This document shows positions 2,991 to 58,961 of a DNA stretch of 61,188 nt, piece after piece. Below the pieces are notes generated by a model, which saw only the letters and a program-made list of their open reading frames with translations, was not told where the DNA came from and searched no databases. The DNA is from Candidatus Hydrothermarchaeota archaeon. Lineage in GTDB: Archaea > Hydrothermarchaeota > Hydrothermarchaeia > Hydrothermarchaeales > BMS3B. Positions within the stretch are counted from its first letter, which is position 1. Every line of letters starts with the position of its first letter. The DNA lies in the NCBI GenBank assembly GCA_015521615.1, contig WANW01000096.1, positions 1 through 61,188 of the forward strand, given 5' to 3'. The translations under genes were made by a program, and so were the position numbers.

Positions 2991-4682
2991 ATGGTGGAGC
3001 TGGTTGACGACGTTTATCAGTGCGATGTCCTGGTTATAGGTGGTGGTGGAGCAGGTGCAAGGGCTGCAATAGAGGCCAGGAAGCACAACGTTGAAGTGCT
3101 TCTTGTGGTTAAGGGTCTTTTTGGGAGGAGTGGATGCACCGTCATGGCAGAGGGCGGTTACAATGCGGCCTTTGGTTTTGTGGACCCGGAGGATACTCCT
3201 GAGCTCCACTTCGAGGATACAGTAATAGGCGGGCGCTTCCTGAACAATCAGAAGCTGGTGGAGATTCTCGTCAGAGACGCTCCAAAGCGCGTGCTGGAGC
3301 TGGAAAGCTTCGGTGCGACCTTTGACAGGATTGAGCCAGAGAAGTTTGACCAGCGCTACTTTGGCGGGCAACGATTTCGCAGAACTGTGCATCGCGGCGA
3401 CAGAACGGGACACGAGATGATGAATGCACTCAAAGAAGAGGCATACCGCCTTGGCATAGAGGTGCTTGAAGAGGTGGCAATCACGCGTCTGCTAACCAAT
3501 GAGGGCATTATTACGGGCGCCACAGGTCTTGACCTGATTCATGGGCGTTTTCTGCTCTTCAAGGCAAAGGCAGTTGTGCTCGCCACCGGTGGTGCGGGCA
3601 GGCTTTACTCAATAACCACAAACCCATATCAGAAAACCGGTGATGGCTACGCTCTAGCATACAATGCGGGGGCTGAGCTGATAGACATGGAGATGGTGCA
3701 GTTTCATCCCACCGGTATGGTCTACCCCCCCTCTGCGAGTGGACTCCTCGTAACAGAGGCGGTGCGCGGAGAGGGAGGCAAGCTCTACAATAGCCTGGGA
3801 GAGCGCTTCATGGCACGCTATGATCCCGAGAGAATGGAGCTCTCCACTCGTGATGTCGTAACGCGCGCAATATTCAGGGAGATAACCGAAGGGAGGGGGA
3901 CGGAGCACGGTGGGGTGTACCTTGACCTCACCCACGTGCCGGATGAAATCATAGAGCAGAAGCTGGGCACGATGCTCAAGCAGTTCCTCGACGTGGGTGT
4001 GGACATACGCCGTGAGCCCATGGAGGTTTCTCCAAGTGCTCATCACTTCATGGGAGGTGTGCGCACCCGCGAAGACTGCCGGAGCACAGTGATACCAAAC
4101 CTCTTTGCCTGCGGTGAGGTGAATGGTGGAGTGCACGGTGCGAACCGTCTGGGTGGCAACTCTCTGGCTGAGACACAGGTTTTCGGGGCAATCGCCGGAG
4201 AGAACGCTGCAAAAGAGGCCAAAAGGCATGGATATGCGAAAGTGGATTATAAAACTCTGGAAGAAGAGCACGAACGGATATTCCGCTTCGAGGCGGGTGA
4301 AGGCCTGTTACCCTACGAGGTGCGCTCGCAGCTTCAGCGGGTTATGTGGGAGAAGGTGGGAATAATGCGAAGCAGGCAGAGCCTGGAAGAGGCCCTCCGC
4401 ACCATTGCCATGCTCAGGAGCAAACTTGAGGAAGTAACTGTGGAAAGTGGGCTCAGATACAACCTTCAGCTGCTCGCTGCTGTGGAGCTGGACAACATGC
4501 TGCTCGTAGCTGAGATGATCGCAAGAAGTGCGCTGCTGCGTACCGAGAGCAGAGGAGCACACTTCCGCAGCGACTATCCCGAAGAAGACCCGCGCTGGGT
4601 TAAGAATATTGTGGTATCTAAGGCGGCCGATGGGATGCTTGTCAGGACGGTTGAGCCTGTGATAACCACTCTTGTGCCGTGA
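2991..4682 (+). CDS. succinate dehydrogenase / fumarate reductase flavoprotein subunit
   Basis: Motifs seen are the FAD dinucleotide fold DVLVIGGGGAGARAAIEA, plus HPTG, RGEGG and HFMGGV. The length is 563 aa, and an Fe-S subunit gene follows immediately. Confidence 0.85.
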   Translation: MVELVDDVYQCDVLVIGGGGAGARAAIEARKHNVEVLLVVKGLFGRSGCTVMAEGGYNAAFGFVDPEDTPELHFEDTVIGGRFLNNQKLVEILVRDAPKRVLELESFGATFDRIEPEKFDQRYFGGQRFRRTVHRGDRTGHEMMNALKEEAYRLGIEVLEEVAITRLLTNEGIITGATGLDLIHGRFLLFKAKAVVLATGGAGRLYSITTNPYQKTGDGYALAYNAGAELIDMEMVQFHPTGMVYPPSASGLLVTEAVRGEGGKLYNSLGERFMARYDPERMELSTRDVVTRAIFREITEGRGTEHGGVYLDLTHVPDEIIEQKLGTMLKQFLDVGVDIRREPMEVSPSAHHFMGGVRTREDCRSTVIPNLFACGEVNGGVHGANRLGGNSLAETQVFGAIAGENAAKEAKRHGYAKVDYKTLEEEHERIFRFEAGEGLLPYEVRSQLQRVMWEKVGIMRSRQSLEEALRTIAMLRSKLEEVTVESGLRYNLQLLAAVELDNMLLVAEMIARSALLRTESRGAHFRSDYPEEDPRWVKNIVVSKAADGMLVRTVEPVITTLVP

Positions 4683-14380: not shown

Positions 14381-15163
14381 ATGACGAAGTTTGCTGTCAA
14401 GGTGTACTATGACGGCACCGCCTTTTATGGTTCGCAGCGCCAGCCGGAGAAGCGTACAGTAGAGGGGGAGCTTCTCCGCGCCCTGAGCGCCTTTGGTGAG
14501 GTGAGGAACTTCAAGAGTGCGGGGAGAACTGACCGCGGGGTGAGTGCGCTGGGCAACGTGTTTGCCTTCGACATGGAACGCAAACCCGAGCCGCGTGCAA
14601 TAAATGCGCGGCTGAGCAGGGATATAAGGGTGCTCGCAATAAGAGAAGTGCCCGCGGACTTTCACCCGCGCTACGACGCACTCCACAGAACCTACAGGTA
14701 CTTCCTCTACGATGAGGGCTTTGACCTTGGAGCAATAAAGCAGGCGTGCAGTATCCTAGAAGGTGAACACAGCTTCCACAACTTTACCCGCGCCAGGGAG
14801 AAAAACTACACGCGAAGGCTCCTTGAGGTCACCGCTGACAGGAAGGGTGAGGTTATTGTGCTAACCTTCAAGGGGGAGAGCTTTCTCTGGGAGATGGTGC
14901 GCAGGCTGACGAGCGCGATAGCAATGGTGGGGAAGGGTGAGCTCAGCGTTGAGGCACTTGAAGAGGCTTTACACCCTGAAGTGGAGCGGAAATTTTCAGC
15001 GGCACCGCCTGAGTTTCTTGTGCTCTGGCACGTGGCCTATGAGTTTGAGTTTGAGCATGAAGAGTACTCCACGGCACAGCTTGTGGCGCAGCTCAGGGAA
15101 AGGTTCTCGTCGCTGTATGCGCAGGCTGCGCTTGCAAAGGCGATGTTTGAAGAGCTGGACTAA
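14381..15163 (+). CDS. truA: tRNA pseudouridine(38-40) synthase
   Basis: The sequence shows YDGTAFYGSQRQ and the catalytic-Asp motif AGRTDRGVSALGNV. An SD-like GGGGGAGAGG lies upstream. Confidence 0.9.
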   Translation: MTKFAVKVYYDGTAFYGSQRQPEKRTVEGELLRALSAFGEVRNFKSAGRTDRGVSALGNVFAFDMERKPEPRAINARLSRDIRVLAIREVPADFHPRYDALHRTYRYFLYDEGFDLGAIKQACSILEGEHSFHNFTRAREKNYTRRLLEVTADRKGEVIVLTFKGESFLWEMVRRLTSAIAMVGKGELSVEALEEALHPEVERKFSAAPPEFLVLWHVAYEFEFEHEEYSTAQLVAQLRERFSSLYAQAALAKAMFEELD

Positions 15164-16425
15164 ATGCTGAACTTCTCCCTCAGTGCCGACCTGCGAAGCA
15201 CATGCCAGGTGTCACCGCGCAAAATCACCCTGAAGGCATGCTCTATGACCTTCCTGTAAAAATCACAGTAGTAGCTCTTTTTGTACATGCTGCCGTCGGT
15301 GGAGTATATCTCCGCAGGACATGGGGCACCGCAGATGTTTTTGAATAGGCAGATATTGCACTCTGCTATCCATTCAACTGTTCGGCTCATCACCTTTCGG
15401 AAGCCATCTGAGTCTGAGATTTCCTCAATAGTGCTATTGAATATACTCCCTCCGGTGAACTCCTGCATGCCTATAAACTCACCGCAGGGGTAGCACTCAC
15501 CATTTGCAGTAACTGAAAAGAATCTCCTTCCAGCGCCACATGGTGAGATGTCGCACATAAGCACCCTTGCACCTGGAGCAATGATGCCAAGCAGGAGGTT
15601 GGCGAAGTCTCCTATAACTATCCTTCTCCCCTGTTTAGTCAGCTCAATTGCAGTGTCCACAGCTTTAATAAAATCTTTGGCCATCTCCTGCGGTTCAGGT
15701 CGCAGGGCGAGAGAGCCTTTCTGGGTTCCTCTAACAGGATTCATCAGGCAAAGTGAAACCTCCCTCTCATGCAGGAACCTGACCATGTCAGCAAGCTGCC
15801 TCTGGTTGTGCTTCGTTATGGTGGTCACCACATTCAAGCCTCTGTAACGTGAGAGCCACTCAAGTGCCTCGATGACCTTGCTGAAGTGTCCCTGCCCGCG
15901 CAGTGCGTCGTTGGTTACTTCATCAGGCGAGTCGAGTGAGATGCCTATGTTCACCCTCTTTTCCTTTATAAACTCAGCATCCTCCTCGGCTAGCAGCATA
16001 CCATTCGTCTGAATCCCGAAGTGAAGCTCGTTGTGATAATCCTCAATTACCCTGAAGATATTCTCCCTGTTCATCAGAGGCTCACTTCCATGGAATACTA
16101 TTGAGCCCTTTATCCCCCTGCTTTCAAAAAATTCAATTGCCTTCTCAATGACGGCATTCAACTCAGCGTAGCTCATGTTTTTTCCGCGTGACTTTATATT
16201 CTGAGGCAGGTAGCAGTATGGGCATGAGGCGTTGCATTTGTCGGTGGGGTTTACATAAAGCAGAATTATATCTTTGCAGAACCTCAGGTTTTGCATCTCC
16301 TCAATCAGCTCTTTTCTCACGCTGAAATACAGCCCTTCCAGTTTCTTCTGATCCCCAATTCCCCAGAAATTTGTCTCTGGGTCAATCTTAAACTCCACCT
16401 CGTCGATTGTGAGAGTCTGAAGCAT
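15160..16425 (-). CDS. radical SAM / SPASM-domain protein (peptide-maturase-like)
   Basis: The CxxxCxxC motif is CNASCPYC. The C-terminal Cys-rich part reads CDISPCGAGRRFFSVTANGECYPCGEF...CNICLFKNICGAPCP. ATG 16425 is preceded by GGTGGTGAGG; the track start is TTG 16437. Confidence 0.8.
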   Translation of the reverse strand: MLQTLTIDEVEFKIDPETNFWGIGDQKKLEGLYFSVRKELIEEMQNLRFCKDIILLYVNPTDKCNASCPYCYLPQNIKSRGKNMSYAELNAVIEKAIEFFESRGIKGSIVFHGSEPLMNRENIFRVIEDYHNELHFGIQTNGMLLAEEDAEFIKEKRVNIGISLDSPDEVTNDALRGQGHFSKVIEALEWLSRYRGLNVVTTITKHNQRQLADMVRFLHEREVSLCLMNPVRGTQKGSLALRPEPQEMAKDFIKAVDTAIELTKQGRRIVIGDFANLLLGIIAPGARVLMCDISPCGAGRRFFSVTANGECYPCGEFIGMQEFTGGSIFNSTIEEISDSDGFRKVMSRTVEWIAECNICLFKNICGAPCPAEIYSTDGSMYKKSYYCDFYRKVIEHAFRVILRGDTWHVLRRSALREKFSI

Positions 16426-16448
16426 CCTCACCACCAAAAAAGAAAGAA

Positions 16449-16559
16449 TTAGAAGGGCGAATCTTCACTCTGCATCACATAGTGGGTGAGTCCAGCCCCT
16501 CTGTATTTACACTCCATTCTGTAACTCATTTCTACTTTATGTTCATTTTTGTTGTTCAT
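16449..16559 (-). CDS. unannotated small ORF (36 aa; 42 aa if started at ATG 16577), candidate precursor peptide
   Basis: Hand translation of the minus strand gives MNNKNEHKVEMSYRMECKYRGAGLTHYVMQSEDSPF* with TAA at 16449-16451. The ORF ends 23 nt (11 nt if the rSAM gene starts at TTG 16437) upstream of the radical SAM/SPASM start. A TATA-like TTTTATAA lies about 33 nt upstream. It is below the 60-aa track cutoff. Confidence 0.45.
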   Translation of the reverse strand: MNNKNEHKVEMSYRMECKYRGAGLTHYVMQSEDSPF

Positions 16560-16592
16560 ATCTGCCACTCTCTGCATAATTTATACTATTTC

Positions 16593-16600
16593 TTATAAAA
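16593..16600 (-). promoter_or_regulatory. TATA-box-like element (TTTTATAA on the minus strand) upstream of the small ORF / radical SAM pair
   Basis: An AT-rich box lies about 33 nt upstream of ATG 16559. The usual -26 spacing places the transcription start about 11 nt before that ATG (inference). Confidence 0.35.
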
Positions 16601-16680
16601 GAAAGTAATATTTAAGCTTTTCCTCAAATAACATTGATTAGAAAATCAAGTTTGCTTGATTAGCACAAGAACCTGCCGGT

Positions 16681-17100
16681 TTATCTTGTGAGCAGGTACC
16701 CGGCGACAATTGCCAGAGCAATACCTGCGGCATTAACTGCCTTTATTTTCTCTCCCAGGACGAGCACTGCAAGTATGGCGCTCACAGCAGGGTAAAGGGC
16801 TGTAAGGGGTATAACGATGCTTCCAGGATATCTTTCCAGGGCGAGCATGAAAAGCAGTGAGGCGGTTACACCCACCACTGTTCCCAGCGTCAGCATTGCC
16901 GCCGGCTGTGAGACAGGGAAGCTTATTCCCCTGTAATAGAGGTAAGCGAGGATGATAAGGTTTGTAATCATATAAATCACGTTGGTCACAAAAAGAGCGC
17001 GAAATAAACCAAGTCTATCAACACCATACTTGTAGAGAAAACCCCACAGGCCCCAGAGGATAACTATCGCAAGACCAAGCACTGAAATCTCGAGTTTCAT
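16681..17100 (-). CDS. EamA-like (DMT superfamily) small transporter, single-domain
   Basis: The protein is 139 aa with 4-5 hydrophobic helices, and the pattern resembles half-size EamA proteins. Confidence 0.6.
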   Translation of the reverse strand: MKLEISVLGLAIVILWGLWGFLYKYGVDRLGLFRALFVTNVIYMITNLIILAYLYYRGISFPVSQPAAMLTLGTVVGVTASLLFMLALERYPGSIVIPLTALYPAVSAILAVLVLGEKIKAVNAAGIALAIVAGYLLTR

Positions 17101-53948: not shown

Positions 53949-54051
53949 GGGCTCTTTTTTCTTTTATTCTTTTGCAAGTAGAGGGTTGGAGGCTTTGTAT
54001 AGGGCTGGTGAGTAGAATACTTTGCCCTCGCCAGCCTTGGCAATAAAGGCT

Positions 54052-55620
54052 ATGCAGACCTGGCGACTTCTCGATACAGGTAAGCGCAGTGCTGCCGAGA
54101 ATCTTGCCCTCGACGAGGCGCTGCTTCTTGCAAGGGCGAGGCATTCAACGCCCAACACGCTACGCTTCCTCCAGTTTTCGCCTCATGCCGCGCTGGTGGG
54201 CTTTCATCAGAGCGTTGAGCTTGAGATACGCGAGGAATTCTGCAGGCAGGCGGGTATAGACATAAACCGTCGTATCACCGGCGGGGGGGCACTGTACTTT
54301 GATGAGTCGCAGCTTGGGTGGGAGCTTATCGCACCTCGTGGCTACGAGGCCTTTCCAAAGCGGGTGGAGGAACTTTACGAGGTTATATGCCGCGCCGCTG
54401 CTCGTGGCCTGAGAAAGCTTGGTATAGAGGCGAGCTTTCGCCCCAAGAACGACATAGAGGTCAATGGGAGAAAAATCTCGGGTACAGGAGGGGCGCTGGA
54501 AGAGGATGTATTCCTCTTTCAGGGCACGCTGCTCATGGACTTCGACGTTGAAACCATGCTCAGGGCGCTGCGCATCCCCACGGAGAAGCTCAAGGACAAG
54601 GAGATAGAGTCGGTAAAGGAGCGTGTCACCTGCGTTAAGTGGGAGTTGGGCCACTTACCTGAGCTGGATGAGGTGAAGCAGGCGCTGATGCAGGGCTTTT
54701 CTGAGGAATTTAATCTGCGCTTTGAGGAAGGGGAGCTCCTTCCTGAGGAGAGGGACCTGTACAAAAAGCTCCTGCCAAAGTTCAAATCTCGCGCCTGGGT
54801 GTACAGCACGCGGCGCGCGCCGGAGCAGCGCACCACACTTCGAGCAGCGAAAAAGACGCCCGGCGGGCTCATTCGCGTTCAGCTTGTCGTAGACGCGAAG
54901 AATGAGCGCATCCATTTTGCCTTAATTACAGGAGATTTCTTCGCCTACCCCAAGAGGGCGATATTCGACCTTGAAGCCAGGCTCAAAGACGCGAGCGCGG
55001 CGCCGGAGGAGGTTGAGAGGGTGATAAGACGCTTCTTCTCAGAGCGGGAGGTGGAGATTCCTGGAGCGAGTGTTGATGATTTCGTTGAAGTTGTGCTTGC
55101 CGCACTGGCAAAGCTCAGACTTAAGAAATACGGCATCGGCATAGAAGAGGCGAACCGCGTATTCACAGTGCTCGGTGACTTTGAAGATGTGCGCGCACCT
55201 CGCGCCCTGCTTTTGCCCTACTGCGCCAAGGCAAAGGATTGCGACCTGCGCTACAAGAATGACTGTAGAAAGTGCGGGCGCTGCACTGTGGGCAGAGCCT
55301 ACGAGCTTGCGGAGGAGCTGGGCCTAGAGGCAATTACAATTGTGAATTACGAGCATCTGGAGGAGACGCTGCGCAGTCTGCGCGAGCGGGGCATCTCCTC
55401 GTTTATAGGTACCTGCTGTGAGAGCTTCTTCATAAAGCACCAGCGCGACTTTGAGCGTCTTGGTCTAAGGGGTGTGCTTGTGGATATAGACAACACCACC
55501 TGCTATGACCTTGGAAAAGTTAGAGAGGCGAAGAAGGGCAGGTTCAGGGAGGAGACAACACTCAAGCTGGAGCTTCTCGAGAAGGTGCTCAGGCTGAAGG
55601 TAGACAGGAGCAACTCATAA
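54052..55620 (+). CDS. lipoate-protein ligase-like protein: LplA catalytic domain + LplB-type accessory domain + C-terminal Cys-rich DUF116-like domain
   Basis: The sequence begins MQTWRLLDTG...LRFLQFSPHAALVGFHQ...RRITGGGALYFD...NDIEVNGRKISGTGGA, a BPL_LplA_LipB pattern. ITGDFFAYPKRAIFDLEARL is the LplA C-terminal domain. LLPYCAKAKDCDLRYKNDCRKCGRCTVG...GTCCESFF is DUF116-like (memory). Confidence 0.7.
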   Translation: MQTWRLLDTGKRSAAENLALDEALLLARARHSTPNTLRFLQFSPHAALVGFHQSVELEIREEFCRQAGIDINRRITGGGALYFDESQLGWELIAPRGYEAFPKRVEELYEVICRAAARGLRKLGIEASFRPKNDIEVNGRKISGTGGALEEDVFLFQGTLLMDFDVETMLRALRIPTEKLKDKEIESVKERVTCVKWELGHLPELDEVKQALMQGFSEEFNLRFEEGELLPEERDLYKKLLPKFKSRAWVYSTRRAPEQRTTLRAAKKTPGGLIRVQLVVDAKNERIHFALITGDFFAYPKRAIFDLEARLKDASAAPEEVERVIRRFFSEREVEIPGASVDDFVEVVLAALAKLRLKKYGIGIEEANRVFTVLGDFEDVRAPRALLLPYCAKAKDCDLRYKNDCRKCGRCTVGRAYELAEELGLEAITIVNYEHLEETLRSLRERGISSFIGTCCESFFIKHQRDFERLGLRGVLVDIDNTTCYDLGKVREAKKGRFREETTLKLELLEKVLRLKVDRSNS

Positions 55621-55679: not shown

Positions 55680-57419
55680 ATGACAGCAATGGAGGAAGAC
55701 CACCTGGAGTTCCAGCTGAAGCAGGTTAATCCTGAGGAGACGCTGGAGGAGCAGTTTGTTAAACAGAGACAGACCTATCTGTTCTACAAGTTAGCGTGGA
55801 TACAGGAGTTCTTTGACAGAAAGAAGCTCGCACAGGAGCTTGCCTTTCTTGTGATGATGATATATATCTACGACTTTATAGATCGCCTTGGCATGCGCTT
55901 TGCCGACCGAATTCTCAACTTTTTATCCTTTACCGGCTGGCCGCTGGAAAAGTTTCGCTCCCTTATGGGGCTCAACCTGGAGGCCAAGATAGCCATGGCG
56001 GTGGCGCTTGAGTATCCCGAGAAAACTCAGGAGGAGCAGGAGAAGATTGTGGAGCTGGTAACCACCGCCTACTCTTGGCTTGGCCTTGCAAGAGAGCAGG
56101 AGTGGGAGATAGCGCGTGTTGTGAAGCAGAAGCGCTGGCTTTACTCACTCCTCAACTCAGAGCCGGAGCAGAAACGCCGTGAGCTGATTGAGAGACTGCG
56201 CGAAGGCGACGGAAAGCGAGTAGAGCTCAACCTTGTGAACATCGGTATTGTTCCAACTGAGCTCTGCCCCAACAGGTGCCGCTTCTGTCTCGCAGCCTGG
56301 AAGACGAGCTGCGAGGAGAGAATAGGGCGGAGCATAAGCGAGGAGGAGTTCGAGGTTATAGCGGATGAGGTTATAAACTTCGCAGATGAGCGTGGGCTTA
56401 TTATTACAGTGACAGGGGGTGAGCCCTTCCTGGAGCTGGAGCGCGTGCTCTACCTGGTGAAGCATGCTCGCTCCCGCCTGGACATAACCACCAGCGCCTA
56501 CTGGGCACGTGATATTGGCAAAGCCAAGGAGATTCTTTCAAAGCTCAGTGACGCAGCGAAGGAGAACCACAATGAAAACTTCAAGTTTACACTGCAGGTT
56601 AGCCTGGACGCCTTCCACCAGGAGGTGTTCTTTGAGAAGGGTGAGTTTGTGCAGAATGTGCCCATAGAGTGCATAATAAATCTGCTGAAGCTGACGCAGG
56701 AGGAGTTTCCGGAGATTGAGGTAGTTCTCCTCACAAAGCTAACGTCCTACGAGGATCCCCTCGCACGGCTCATAAAGCTGCTGGAGAAGCAGGGGATGAA
56801 GGTCAGGCTTACGCGGAAGGTGACGCAGCCAGGTGTTACGGTGAACCTCTTGGACGAAAATCGCAATCTCGTGGCAAAGCCGGCGCTGCTCAAGGCTTAC
56901 CTGGAGTTTGAGGGGACGCCTGGAAAGCCGGTGCTTATCTTCTATACAGTGGTGGAGAGCATGGGCAAGGCTTCAGCACTCGACGCCTTTGAGTTTCCGG
57001 GCTTCAGAGAACAGGTGCAGGAGCTTCTCAGGGGTAAGAGTGAGATTAAGCTTCCGCTTATAGGCCTCGAGGTGAGTGATGATGGCAATGTTTATCCAGG
57101 GGCACATTCTCTCTATGCCTGGAGCGCTGGAAACCTCCTTGAAGAAGGGCTGGAAGATATATATGAGCGTCTGAGCTACGACCCTCTCATAGTCACCCTT
57201 GCAGAAGAACCCGCAAAGATCTTCGAGATAGCGCGGGAGGTTGAAGGCGAGCGCGTTGATGCGGTAGCTATAAAGGAATCCTCACCTTTAGCTGCGGTGT
57301 ATAAGATTCTGGAAGCTCCCTGGATGCGTCTGTACATTACGCGGCGCCTTCTCGGTGAGTCCCAGGAAAAGGCAAAGGAGGAGTACCAGAAATACAGAGA
57401 GGAGTATCGCCCTGAATAA
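55680..57419 (+). CDS. radical SAM protein with a ~190-aa N-terminal helical extension
   Basis: CPNRCRFC lies at residues 196-203 and TVTGGEPF is the SAM-binding GGE motif. There is no second Cys cluster. An ATATTTAT box lies about 30 nt upstream with no SD, which suggests a leaderless start (inference). Confidence 0.75.
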   Translation: MTAMEEDHLEFQLKQVNPEETLEEQFVKQRQTYLFYKLAWIQEFFDRKKLAQELAFLVMMIYIYDFIDRLGMRFADRILNFLSFTGWPLEKFRSLMGLNLEAKIAMAVALEYPEKTQEEQEKIVELVTTAYSWLGLAREQEWEIARVVKQKRWLYSLLNSEPEQKRRELIERLREGDGKRVELNLVNIGIVPTELCPNRCRFCLAAWKTSCEERIGRSISEEEFEVIADEVINFADERGLIITVTGGEPFLELERVLYLVKHARSRLDITTSAYWARDIGKAKEILSKLSDAAKENHNENFKFTLQVSLDAFHQEVFFEKGEFVQNVPIECIINLLKLTQEEFPEIEVVLLTKLTSYEDPLARLIKLLEKQGMKVRLTRKVTQPGVTVNLLDENRNLVAKPALLKAYLEFEGTPGKPVLIFYTVVESMGKASALDAFEFPGFREQVQELLRGKSEIKLPLIGLEVSDDGNVYPGAHSLYAWSAGNLLEEGLEDIYERLSYDPLIVTLAEEPAKIFEIAREVEGERVDAVAIKESSPLAAVYKILEAPWMRLYITRRLLGESQEKAKEEYQKYREEYRPE

Positions 57420-57485
57420 TAAAATTATTCTGTTTTGTATTACTATTTCCTAAACTTTGCCATTTCTATATGTAATGGCACAAAG

Positions 57486-57493
57486 TTATAAAT
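57486..57493 (+). promoter_or_regulatory. TATA-box-like element (TTATAAAT) upstream of the small ORFs / SPASM gene
   Basis: It lies about 38 nt upstream of ATG 57528. It is immediately followed by ATATCCTGCCGATTCAAA, a motif also present downstream of the TATA of the gene at 53091. Confidence 0.35.
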
Positions 57494-57527
57494 ATCCTGC
57501 CGATTCAAAAATAGTCAGGGTGATTAA

Positions 57528-57596
57528 ATGAAAATCGTGAAGAAGGAAAAGAAAGTTGCATATGCGACATGTAAGTGCCATAAGAGCTGCATGTAG
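57528..57596 (+). CDS. unannotated 22-aa Lys/Cys-rich ORF, candidate precursor peptide
   Basis: Hand translation gives MKIVKKEKKVAYATCKCHKSCM*, with 7 Lys and a C-x-C-x3-C tail. The SD GGTGA lies 4 nt before the ATG. Frame indexing was cross-checked against track ORF 57556. Confidence 0.55.
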   Translation: MKIVKKEKKVAYATCKCHKSCM

Positions 57597-57627
57597 CTCT
57601 TTTTCTTTTATTTTTGAGGTGATTCTA

Positions 57628-57768
57628 ATGGACCTAACCGAGGAGATTCGAGCGAGGGTGTGCAGACGTTGCGACTTTTACAAGGAGGGCGAGACCCTGG
57701 AGTGTGCCGCCTTCAAGACAGCGAAGCGCCTTGTTGAACAGGGGAAGGTCAGCCTGGATGAAATATAA
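57628..57768 (+). CDS. small 46-aa CxxC protein (accessory protein or second precursor)
   Basis: The sequence is MDLTEEIRARVCRRCDFYKEGETLECAAFKTAKRLVEQGKVSLDEI. The SD GAGGTGA lies 5 nt before the ATG. The track ORF 57556..57768 starts at a TTG that overlaps the 22-aa ORF. Confidence 0.6.
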   Translation: MDLTEEIRARVCRRCDFYKEGETLECAAFKTAKRLVEQGKVSLDEI

Positions 57769-57779
57769 TCTGAATCGCC

Positions 57780-58961
57780 ATGTATCCCAGACTTAAGAAC
57801 TGTGTGCTACGCGCTGGTGAGGGCTATTTTCTTTACAATTATGTTGAGGATGTGGTTTATGAGCTTGACCTTGAGGCGCTGGAGCTGCTGCGCTGCTTCA
57901 CAGGTAAAAACAGCCTTGAAGCTCTGGCATGCGAATTTGGAGAGGGGAAGGTAAGGGAGGTGGTGGAGTACCTCCTGGGCGAGGGTTGTCTCGTCGATGA
58001 GCATAACGAAGATGCGCCGCAGAGCTTTATTGTAGAGCACTTTACGCCGTCGCTGCGCTACCTTCAGCTTCACATCACAGAACGGTGCAACCTCGCGTGC
58101 AGGCACTGCTACCTGGGTGAGAAGTCATGCATAGACCTGCCCAGAGAACTCGCCTTTAAGGCGGTGGAGGAGTTCTCACGCTTCGGGTGGAAGCTTTTAA
58201 TCACCGGCGGAGAGCCCATGCTCTCTCCCTACTTCTGGGAGCTGGTGAGCTTCGCTTCTCAACTTGGTGTACGCTTGGTGGTGCTCACCAATGGTACGCT
58301 TATCAGCGAAGCCACCGCAAAGCGCCTCGCCGAGCATGTTCATGAGGTGCAAATTAGTTTAGATGGCATTAAGCACGGACATGAGGCGCTCCGCGGGGAG
58401 GGAAGCTTCGCTAAAACACTTCGCGGAATAGAGGCAGCCGCCAAATACATGAGGGTGAGTATTGCTACAATGATTCATCGTGAGAATTTAAAAGAGTTCC
58501 CGCAGCTTGAGAAGCTTATTAAAAGCTTGGGTGTAGAGGAGTGGAGCCTGGATGTGCCCTCCCCCAAGGGGAGCTTACTGGAGAACGCGGAGCTTCTCCC
58601 GCCCCTTGAAGAGGCTGCAAGGATATACTCGAAGTATGGCTTCTCCTCCGGTGTGCATGAGGGTAGCGCTGAATATGCTTGCGGCGCTCACCTCTGCTCA
58701 GTTAATGTAAAAGGCGAAGTGACAAAGTGCGGATTCTTTGAGCATGGGGTGGGCAATCTTGCAGAAATTTCACTTAAAGAAGGCTGGAAGAGGATAGTTG
58801 AGAGCTATCTGCCAAAGCTGAGCGAACTCGCTTGTGCAGATTGCAAATACCTCAGCGCCTGTAGAGGTGGGTGTAGATTCAGAGCACTAAGCGAGGGAGA
58901 CTTTCTGGGCAAAGATAGCTTTCTATGCCTGCTCTACTCAAAGGTTCACAATCTTCAGTGA
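57780..58961 (+). CDS. radical SAM / SPASM-like peptide maturase with an N-terminal PqqD-type (RRE-like) domain
   Basis: The N-terminal ~85 aa (YFLYNYVEDVVYELDLEALELLRCFTGKNSLEALACEFGEGKVREVVEYLLGEGCLVDE) reads like a PqqD/RiPP-recognition element. CNLACRHC is CxxxCxxC. The C-terminus is CGAHLCSVNVKGEVTKCGFF...CADCKYLSACRGGCRF. Confidence 0.8.
   Translation: MYPRLKNCVLRAGEGYFLYNYVEDVVYELDLEALELLRCFTGKNSLEALACEFGEGKVREVVEYLLGEGCLVDEHNEDAPQSFIVEHFTPSLRYLQLHITERCNLACRHCYLGEKSCIDLPRELAFKAVEEFSRFGWKLLITGGEPMLSPYFWELVSFASQLGVRLVVLTNGTLISEATAKRLAEHVHEVQISLDGIKHGHEALRGEGSFAKTLRGIEAAAKYMRVSIATMIHRENLKEFPQLEKLIKSLGVEEWSLDVPSPKGSLLENAELLPPLEEAARIYSKYGFSSGVHEGSAEYACGAHLCSVNVKGEVTKCGFFEHGVGNLAEISLKEGWKRIVESYLPKLSELACADCKYLSACRGGCRFRALSEGDFLGKDSFLCLLYSKVHNLQ

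Follow-up and report, generated by a model that had tools for sequence, protein, structure and literature searches.

The minus strand of a 61,188-nt stretch of DNA from a Candidatus Hydrothermarchaeota archaeon (contig WANW01000096.1 of assembly GCA_015521615.1; here called the window) carries a 36-codon open reading frame (ORF) directly 5′ of a gene for an enzyme of the radical S-adenosylmethionine (SAM) type with a SPASM domain. We consider it probable, at roughly 80%, that the two form a cbpA-cbpB module, in which one gene encodes a peptide of 36 residues made on the ribosome and the other the radical SAM/SPASM enzyme modifying this peptide. The pair belongs to the CbpA/CbpB family, which is already curated and computationally defined, and it is therefore not a new kind of system; as far as the literature was searched, the chemistry and role of CbpA/CbpB are undescribed. 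The present analysis adds a corrected gene model with its signals, the finding that most members escape the curated peptide model, the restriction of a neighboring EamA gene to one lineage, and a quantification of the links to cobalamin operons and riboswitches. The minus strand from 17300 to 14900 was read directly and its ORFs were listed, and the pair was then compared with its homologues.

The 421-residue enzyme scores 509.1 bits against the NCBIfam model TIGR04163, “peptide-modifying radical SAM enzyme CbpB” (cut-off, 375 bits), and aligns to positions 1 to 425 of the 428 in that model. The next NCBIfam models lie far below their cut-offs (DynA, 140 versus 450 bits; PapB, 129 versus 340; SCIFF maturase, 114 versus 425), and the models for anaerobic sulfatase-maturating enzymes (anSMEs) are failed (122 versus 349.45 bits and 109 versus 441). 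Classification by hidden Markov model (HMM) thus places the enzyme with CbpB and apart from the sulfatase maturases. Pfam recognizes Radical_SAM and SPASM domains. The CX3CX2C motif for the SAM cluster is C64/C68/C71, and the SPASM cysteines are C291, C296, C314, C356, C359, C365, C369, and C387, spaced as C296-x12-G-x4-C314, C356-x2-C359-x5-C365-x3-C369, and C387 (pattern CX9-15GX4C … CX2CX5CX3C … C); both sets are invariant in 19 homologues. A large protein collection holds 1,547 relatives at an E value of ≤1e-20, several of them named CbpB by NCBI, the closest so named being from Candidatus Pyrohabitans, a genus of Hydrothermarchaeota (80% identity).

The small ORF (16559..16449) translates to MNNKNEHKVEMSYRMECKYRGAGLTHYVMQSEDSPF and comprises 11 variable N-terminal residues followed by a conserved 25-residue core (16526..16452). 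The core has the pattern SYRxEC-x6-GLTHYVM..., in which the codon of the invariant Cys17 is 16511..16509 and GLTHY occupies residues 23 to 27. Among NCBIfam models, the 36-residue form matches TIGR04164, “modified peptide precursor CbpA,” alone (E = 4.8e-6). Its score of 25.9 bits is under the cut-off of 35, and we assign it to CbpA, as predicted from its motif and its context, on grounds other than the score. When a 42-residue version of the translation was used as the query, five small proteins were retrieved, one of which had been named “modified peptide precursor CbpA” by the Joint Genome Institute (JGI). Gene callers place genes of 36, 47, and 50 residues at the same site in close relatives and genes of 37 residues in more distant archaea.

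Conservation of the small ORF was assessed beside orthologues of the enzyme. A scan for CbpB, with one genome per species, confirmed at least 575 loci among these species-representative genomes, and CbpA/CbpB is therefore widespread; the best 80 were retained and, with the window, make up 81 loci. A homologous small ORF on the same strand directly upstream of CbpB was found at 78 of the 81 by searching for the pattern G-[LIVM]-[TS]-H-[YFW], and at one more (L072) by eye; one of the two remaining loci has insufficient upstream DNA and the other is ambiguous. The Cys and a hydrophobic last residue are present in all 78 aligned peptides, an aromatic residue four positions ahead of the Cys in 77 (the window peptide has Tyr13 here), and an acidic residue six positions past the His in 73, and invariance at the GL[TS]H[YF] columns is partly by construction, as these columns are the search pattern. 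In the window peptide, SYRMECKYRGAGLTHYVMQSED fits every conserved column of this 78-sequence alignment and the core consensus [SA]-[YF]-x-x-[EK]-C-x5,6-G-L-[TS]-H-[YF]-[VI]-M, then an acidic residue. Three types of peptide can be told apart: ...SYRLECKYKGAGLTHYVMQSDESPF in the archaeal relatives of the window, ...AFQFECEVGGGLTHYIMGEDSPF in Archaeoglobaceae, and ...ISYHLKCAKTANGLTHFVMYGDVPKKKMPL in Nitrospirota, Omnitrophota, and Planctomycetia.

The small ORF also evolves as coding DNA. In twelve archaeal sequences, the ratio of nonsynonymous to synonymous differences per site (pN/pS) of the 25 core codons was 0 to 0.43, and the numbers of variable core columns at codon positions 1, 2, and 3 were 14, 9, and 24 of 25. 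Against an 86%-identical relative, pN/pS was 0.04, with six synonymous changes and one nonsynonymous change. The cbpA core is under purifying selection at the protein level, with silent sites nearly saturated, and the small ORF is a real gene, conserved far beyond chance. The original prediction had proposed a precursor or substrate peptide directly 5′ of a SPASM peptide-modifying enzyme and had named three outcomes that would count against it, namely, orthologues without a conserved upstream ORF, noncoding evolution of the spacer, and grouping of the enzyme with anSMEs or other non-RiPP enzymes (RiPP, ribosomally synthesized and posttranslationally modified peptide). What was found instead is an upstream ORF at 78 or 79 of 81 loci, the low pN/pS range given above, and a match beyond the cut-off of the CbpB model.

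These data bear directly on whether the small ORF encodes a substrate at all. In the cbpB leader it could be an upstream ORF of regulatory function or one present by chance, or it could encode a small enzyme subunit that is not itself modified; the weak Shine-Dalgarno (SD) sequence in the window and the score below the curated cut-off would suit such a reading, as would the fact that modification of CbpA is deduced rather than directly evidenced. Purifying selection at the amino acid level, together with homologous peptides that span archaea and bacteria at 45 to 100% enzyme identity, excludes a chance or regulatory ORF, and in every solved structural neighbor of CbpB that has a bound partner peptide, that peptide is the substrate, which makes a subunit less probable. 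We regard a nonsubstrate ORF as highly improbable.

The gene is unannotated because its score falls under the TIGR04164 cut-off, the model being narrow. Of ten peptides adjoining bona fide CbpB genes, only one, from Archaeoglobaceae, reached 35 bits, and bacterial peptides scored 0 to 19. The window peptide lies in an archaeal clade ending in ...QS(E/D)(E/D)SPF, which the model barely reaches. CbpA genes have probably been missed across many annotated genomes.

The order of genes on the minus strand is a one-domain EamA gene, the 36-codon cbpA, and the radical SAM/SPASM gene cbpB. The EamA ORF, hairpin, TTTTATAA box, small ORF, and radical SAM gene of the original prediction were all found where it had placed them, and the features of the locus are as follows.

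16681..17100, minus strand: EamA gene, encoding a one-domain membrane protein of 139 residues (Pfam EamA PF00892, 53.5 bits, residues 7 to 138)
16644..16661, minus strand: hairpin AATCAAG-caaa-CTTGATT, then TTTTC, 20 nt past the EamA stop
16608..16632, minus strand: promoter-like block GTTATTTGAGGAAAAGCTTAAATAT, with the look of a transcription factor B recognition element (BRE) plus TATA box; contains AAAGCTTAAATA
16593..16600, minus strand: TTTTATAA box, present but not conserved
16565..16572, minus strand: degenerate SD sequence GAGAGTGG of cbpA, 5 nt ahead of ATG 16559
16449..16559, minus strand: cbpA, 36 codons, stop at 16451..16449; modified-peptide precursor by TIGR04164 match, conservation, and pN/pS
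16436..16448, minus strand: T-rich run TTCTTTCTTTTTT, lying 3′ of the cbpA stop and 5′ of the cbpB SD sequence
16426..16435, minus strand: GGTGGTGAGG, SD-like, for cbpB; its GGTGGT is invariant in a five-genome alignment
15160..16425, minus strand: cbpB, encoding the 421-residue radical SAM/SPASM peptide-modifying enzyme (TIGR04163; Pfam Radical_SAM and SPASM)

The gap between the cbpA stop and the cbpB ATG at 16425 is 23 nt, and at 15160 the 3′ end of cbpB has a four-base overlap with the stop of a TruA gene that converges on it.

Start codons and signals were examined in a DNA alignment of five genomes (the window, L085, L002, L089, and L091) with 68 to 100% CbpB identity. The cbpA start at 16559 is conserved, as ATG in L085 and L002 and as TTG in L089 and L091. 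The relatives carry GAGGTGG or GGAGGT ahead of it; the window has GAGA-GTGG, a one-base deletion, and the weak SD sequence already remarked on in the original prediction, GAGAGTGG, is therefore the GAGGTGG of the relatives minus one base. An in-frame ATG at 16577, which would add six residues and give the 42-residue form, exists but was rejected as the start: it is ATA and out of frame in L085, the closest relative (86% identical), whereas the SD sequence and start at 16559 are conserved. The alternative cbpB start at TTG 16437, which would shorten the gap to 11 nt, was likewise discarded as unconserved in the alignment. GGTGGT-N4-ATG is conserved, and cbpB therefore starts at 16425.

The TTTTATAA box, considered as a promoter element, is not conserved in L089, L091, or L002 and was rejected as a TATA box in favor of the invariant AAAGCTTAAATA. 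The latter lies within the block GTTATTTGAG(G/A)AAAAGCTTAAATA (16632..16609), which is almost invariant in the five genomes, with diverged flanks, and occurs as a single copy in the window. The block at 16608..16632 is probably the BRE/TATA promoter of cbpA, of archaeal type, and would put the transcript start about 25 nt ahead of ATG 16559. A run of six or seven T residues follows the cbpA stop immediately in four of the five genomes and may act as a partial archaeal oligo-T terminator. The 7-bp hairpin after the EamA stop (16661..16644) is weak on its own (−5.1 kcal/mol, z = −1.26; 25 of 200 shuffled sequences fold equally well), but its core is retained in four relatives, in which three arm substitutions all yield G·U pairs on the sense strand. 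Because these changes are G·U compatible, an RNA element, probably the 3′ end of the EamA transcript, is modestly favored.

The EamA gene was part of the original prediction, which saw in the locus a classic minimal RiPP arrangement. The central element of that description, a precursor 5′ of a SPASM maturase, is supported, and the inclusion of the EamA exporter in the cassette is not. A BLAST search of the EamA protein against all retrieved loci matched the syntenic relatives L002, L085, and L089 to L091 and the window's own contigs alone, and the other 79 genome loci gave no homologue. The full order MTAP, LivM, LivH / EamA, cbpA, cbpB / TruA ... HisRS is common to all relatives whose CbpB identity is 68 to 100%. 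The adjacency of EamA and cbpAB says little because this entire neighborhood is syntenic. The other archaeal loci hold a bare cbpA-cbpB pair amid unrelated genes, and no transporter or protease recurs among the clustered neighbor ORFs of the archaeal and bacterial loci. EamA as a component of the system is therefore unsupported, and the gene is most likely an unrelated, lineage-specific neighbor.

The product could in principle be a secreted RiPP, i.e., an antimicrobial or a signal, with a cross-linked core, a leader that is removed, and the half-size EamA protein as its exporter. EamA, cbpA, and cbpB are indeed adjacent on the same strand in all Hydrothermarchaeota relatives with 68 to 100% CbpB identity, and the N-terminal 11 residues are variable, as a leader would be. 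The synteny of the surrounding MTAP, LivHM, TruA, and HisRS genes makes that adjacency uninformative, however, and the restriction of EamA to those relatives and the lack of a recurrent exporter or protease in the family speak against export, as do the promoter-like block and the hairpin with its T-run, which stand between EamA and cbpA. Moreover, archaea and bacteria have almost the same core, whereas the cores of competitive RiPPs vary, and bacterial copies lie within vitamin B12 (cobalamin) operons. A classical exported RiPP cassette differs in the same way, in that no dedicated exporter or leader protease co-occurs with CbpB across the family. A secreted natural product is thus quite improbable, and a housekeeping or cofactor-type role fits better.

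Family-wide context links the pair to cobalamin. Neighboring ORFs were clustered, representatives were named with NCBIfam, and a cob/cbi gene was counted if it lay within 4 kb. By this count, at least one gene for cobalt transport or cobalamin biosynthesis (CbiM/N/Q/O, CbiD, CbiE/T, CbiL, CbiB, CobT, and similar) accompanies 54 of 58 bacterial pairs. In the bacterial operons, the genes usually found upstream are those for CbiM, a putative CbiN, CbiQ, and CbiO; those for CbiD (about 42 nt past cbpB in 18 cases), CobT, CbiB, CbiE/T, and CbiL lie downstream. A cobalamin riboswitch (Rfam) was present on the same strand at 8 of 29 bacterial loci scanned. At one (L020) cbpA (1741-1911) comes directly after the aptamer (1538-1667), with cbpB and then a CbiX-CbiC fusion behind it, and at another (L022) the aptamer (3357-3547) is immediately 5′ of cbpA. 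Of the 23 archaeal loci, four have an adjacent cob gene, which is always CobT; Methanoliparum, Methanolliviera, and a Hydrothermarchaeota genome that has the peptide type of the window are among them. The family name, cobo_pep, is one that we take to point to a cobalt- or cobalamin-associated location. The cbpA-cbpB spacer is 12 to 30 nt in most archaeal loci (49 nt in L044) and 29 to 420 nt in bacteria; a repeat element, described below, lies in the long spacer of L061.

Because no exporter or protease travels with the pair, the core is nearly invariant, and the context is that of B12 operons, the product is likely to remain intracellular, either as a small functional peptide or as a cofactor-like molecule. 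On the same grounds, a role of the CbpA product in cobalt or cobalamin metabolism, e.g., binding of cobalt or a corrinoid by its Cys, His, and Met, is a proposition to which we would give about even odds. More specifically, and with confidence somewhat short of even, the product may serve anaerobic cobalt/cobalamin metabolism in both archaea and bacteria as a hitherto unrecognized accessory factor, either as a cross-link-stapled peptide that uses its invariant Cys, His, and Met to carry cobalt or a corrinoid or as a substrate or partner of CobT, the module having become separated from the cob genes in the lineage of the window.

The operon context would also suit a cofactor that is cut out of the peptide. 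By analogy with pyrroloquinoline quinone (PQQ) or mycofactocin, one or two core residues would be modified and unlinked peptidases would excise the product, which might be a building block of a cobamide. Extreme conservation of the core is typical of precursors of the PqqA and MftA type, CbpB counts PqqE and the mycofactocin maturase model among its relatives by structure and HMM, the pair is embedded in a cofactor biosynthesis operon and under its riboswitch, and the lone cob gene adjacent in archaea is always that for CobT, the enzyme that activates the lower ligand. Against excision, no gene for a peptidase or tailoring enzyme accompanies the pair, and archaea usually have a bare two-gene module. 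In addition, conservation extends over 25 residues instead of being confined to a short C-terminal motif, so that the whole peptide seems to matter, and Phe is tolerated for Tyr at the aromatic positions, which makes hydroxyl-dependent chemistry there unlikely. An excised cofactor is on balance unlikely, though less so than a secreted peptide. PqqA/PqqE and MftA/MftC nevertheless resemble the pair in combining a tiny, highly conserved peptide with a SPASM enzyme (given the predicted action of CbpB on CbpA) and in being tied to a metabolic pathway rather than to immunity or export genes. They differ in that CbpAB lacks a PqqD-like chaperone match (Pfam) and nearby peptidases or follow-up enzymes, and in that the conserved region of CbpA is 25 residues long and not a short terminal motif.

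For the preferred intracellular, CbpB-modified peptide, we propose the following mechanism. cbpA and cbpB would be cotranscribed from the conserved TATA-like element. CbpB would bind the peptide chiefly through the conserved front of its core ([IV]-[SA]-[YF]-x-[LMF]-[EK]-C); a classical leader would not be required, because some Archaeoglobaceae peptides hold only two to four residues ahead of the core front. The Pfam scan of CbpB gave no match of the PqqD or RiPP recognition element type, and the AlphaFold2 model (predicted local distance difference test score, 90.2; predicted template modeling [TM] score, 0.91; low confidence at cluster loop 289-296 only) has three short strands and a long helix (residues 1 to 49) ahead of the barrel. 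CbpB would then cleave SAM reductively, a core residue would give up a hydrogen to the 5′-deoxyadenosyl radical and be cross-linked or oxidized, and oxidative cross-linking would be assisted by the two auxiliary clusters. The chemistry that we tentatively prefer is a single thioether from Cys17 to Thr/Ser25 or to the conserved acidic residue 32/33, because there is a single invariant Cys and the fold resembles that of CteB; such a bond would staple the Gly-rich loop of CbpA. The main alternative is an aromatic or His cross-link within GLTHYVM.

A Foldseek search with the CbpB model returned CteB first (E = 3e-20), followed by anSME, TigE, ChlB, SkfB, SuiB, and PqqE; in sequence comparisons, the solved proteins closest to it are anSME and CteB, with 4K37 as the top match in the PDB (E = 3.7e-25). 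SCIFF/CteB and the ranthipeptide/QhpD-type systems, whose SPASM maturases form thioethers, share with the pair the closest solved fold (CteB), a SPASM domain with two auxiliary clusters, a short, conserved, housekeeping-like peptide beside the enzyme, and an invariant Cys. CbpA has one Cys, however, versus six in SCIFF, and the enzyme falls far short of the SCIFF maturase and PapB cut-offs; in CbpB, furthermore, a short N-terminal sheet and helix replace the full peptide recognition domain of CteB, and its chemistry is a prediction. anSME is the best PDB sequence match (4K37), with a fold TM score of 0.74 to 0.81, but CbpB fails the anSME models, no sulfatase is nearby, and CbpA has no C/S-x-P/A-x-R motif. 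The closest system by far remains CbpA/CbpB itself (TIGR04164, cobo_pep; TIGR04163, rSAM_cobopep), in that the window enzyme scores past the equivalog cut-off, the peptide agrees with the core of its own model, the gene order is that of the family (peptide, then enzyme), and relatives are so named by NCBI and JGI. The window differs in having its pair away from cobalamin genes and beside a one-domain EamA gene, and in its peptide score of 25.9 bits, less than 35.

Several points weigh against this interpretation. In the literature searched, no paper or experiment on CbpA/CbpB was found, and we infer the modification of CbpA by CbpB, including substrate, site, and chemistry. Resemblance among SPASM enzymes does not predict chemistry, the nearest HMMs spanning thioether, C-C, and N-C bond formation and oxidation. 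The damage done to the cbpA SD sequence by the one-base deletion means that expression in the window's organism may be low, and the partial circularity of the invariant columns has been mentioned above. The 61-kb window has no cobalamin gene and no cobalamin riboswitch, the scan for cobalamin genes having matched only a generic ABC ATPase and an aminotransferase. Most archaeal loci also have unrelated neighbors, and the link to cobalamin is therefore indirect for the organism of the window.

Some further features were seen at loci of the family. Two Nitrospirota genomes carry a repeat of about 48 nt, GGGGACTGTCCCGGATTTACGGGCGCAGCCGTAGAATCGGGACTGTCC (L042, 4663-4710 and 6068-6115; L061, 1594-1641, 3834-3881, and 4029-4076), which is located in the cbpA-cbpB spacer and recurs, in frame, within the ORFs for CbiD (L061) and CbiE/T (L042), where it translates to GDCPGFTGAAVESGLS; it looks like a repetitive extragenic palindromic (REP) or miniature mobile element. 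At eight loci, including L047 (5287-5973), a Dph6-like ATP pyrophosphatase (TIGR03679, 147 bits, below the cut-off) lies about 36 nt past cbpB and could be a lineage-specific extra tailoring enzyme. A divergent CbpA C terminus, GLSHYVP(A/N)EKK(A/S)LV, without M-Y-G-D, occurs at L018, L047, L050, and L062; its overlap with the Dph6-like gene was checked for L047 only. Finally, a protein of about 300 residues with an N-terminal ribbon-helix-helix segment (weak aCcr1-family match, 28.9 bits) is encoded beside cbpAB at four archaeal loci, all on the minus strand (L004, 17-922; L008, 2903-3823; L044, 2841-3794; L030, 4891-5748). It is divergent from cbpAB at three of the four and absent from the window, and could be a regulator.

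Elsewhere in the window, no second CbpA-like ORF was found. A separate cassette at 55680-58961 (plus strand) has a 579-residue protein with a CPNRCRFC motif (no NCBIfam match) and is unrelated to CbpA. It also holds small Cys-rich ORFs at about 57.5 kb (e.g., MKIVKKEKKVAYATCKCHKSCM), likewise unrelated to CbpA, and a 393-residue radical SAM/SPASM protein whose best family is AhbD (125 bits versus a 500-bit cut-off). Directly upstream of the radical SAM-like gene at 55.7 kb, at 54022-55620 (plus strand), is a gene for a lipoate-protein ligase-like protein (TIGR00545, 170 bits, below the cut-off) with an extra Cys-rich C terminus of about 170 residues.

The annotation of this genome, and probably that of many others, omits a real gene of 36 codons. 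For the biology of the family, the near constancy of the core from archaea to bacteria, the cobalamin operons, and the riboswitch-led copies point to a conserved cellular role, with a link to cobalt or B12, and away from a competitive natural product. Solving the modification predicted for CbpB would add a reaction to the SPASM repertoire and might also fill a gap in anaerobic cobalamin metabolism.

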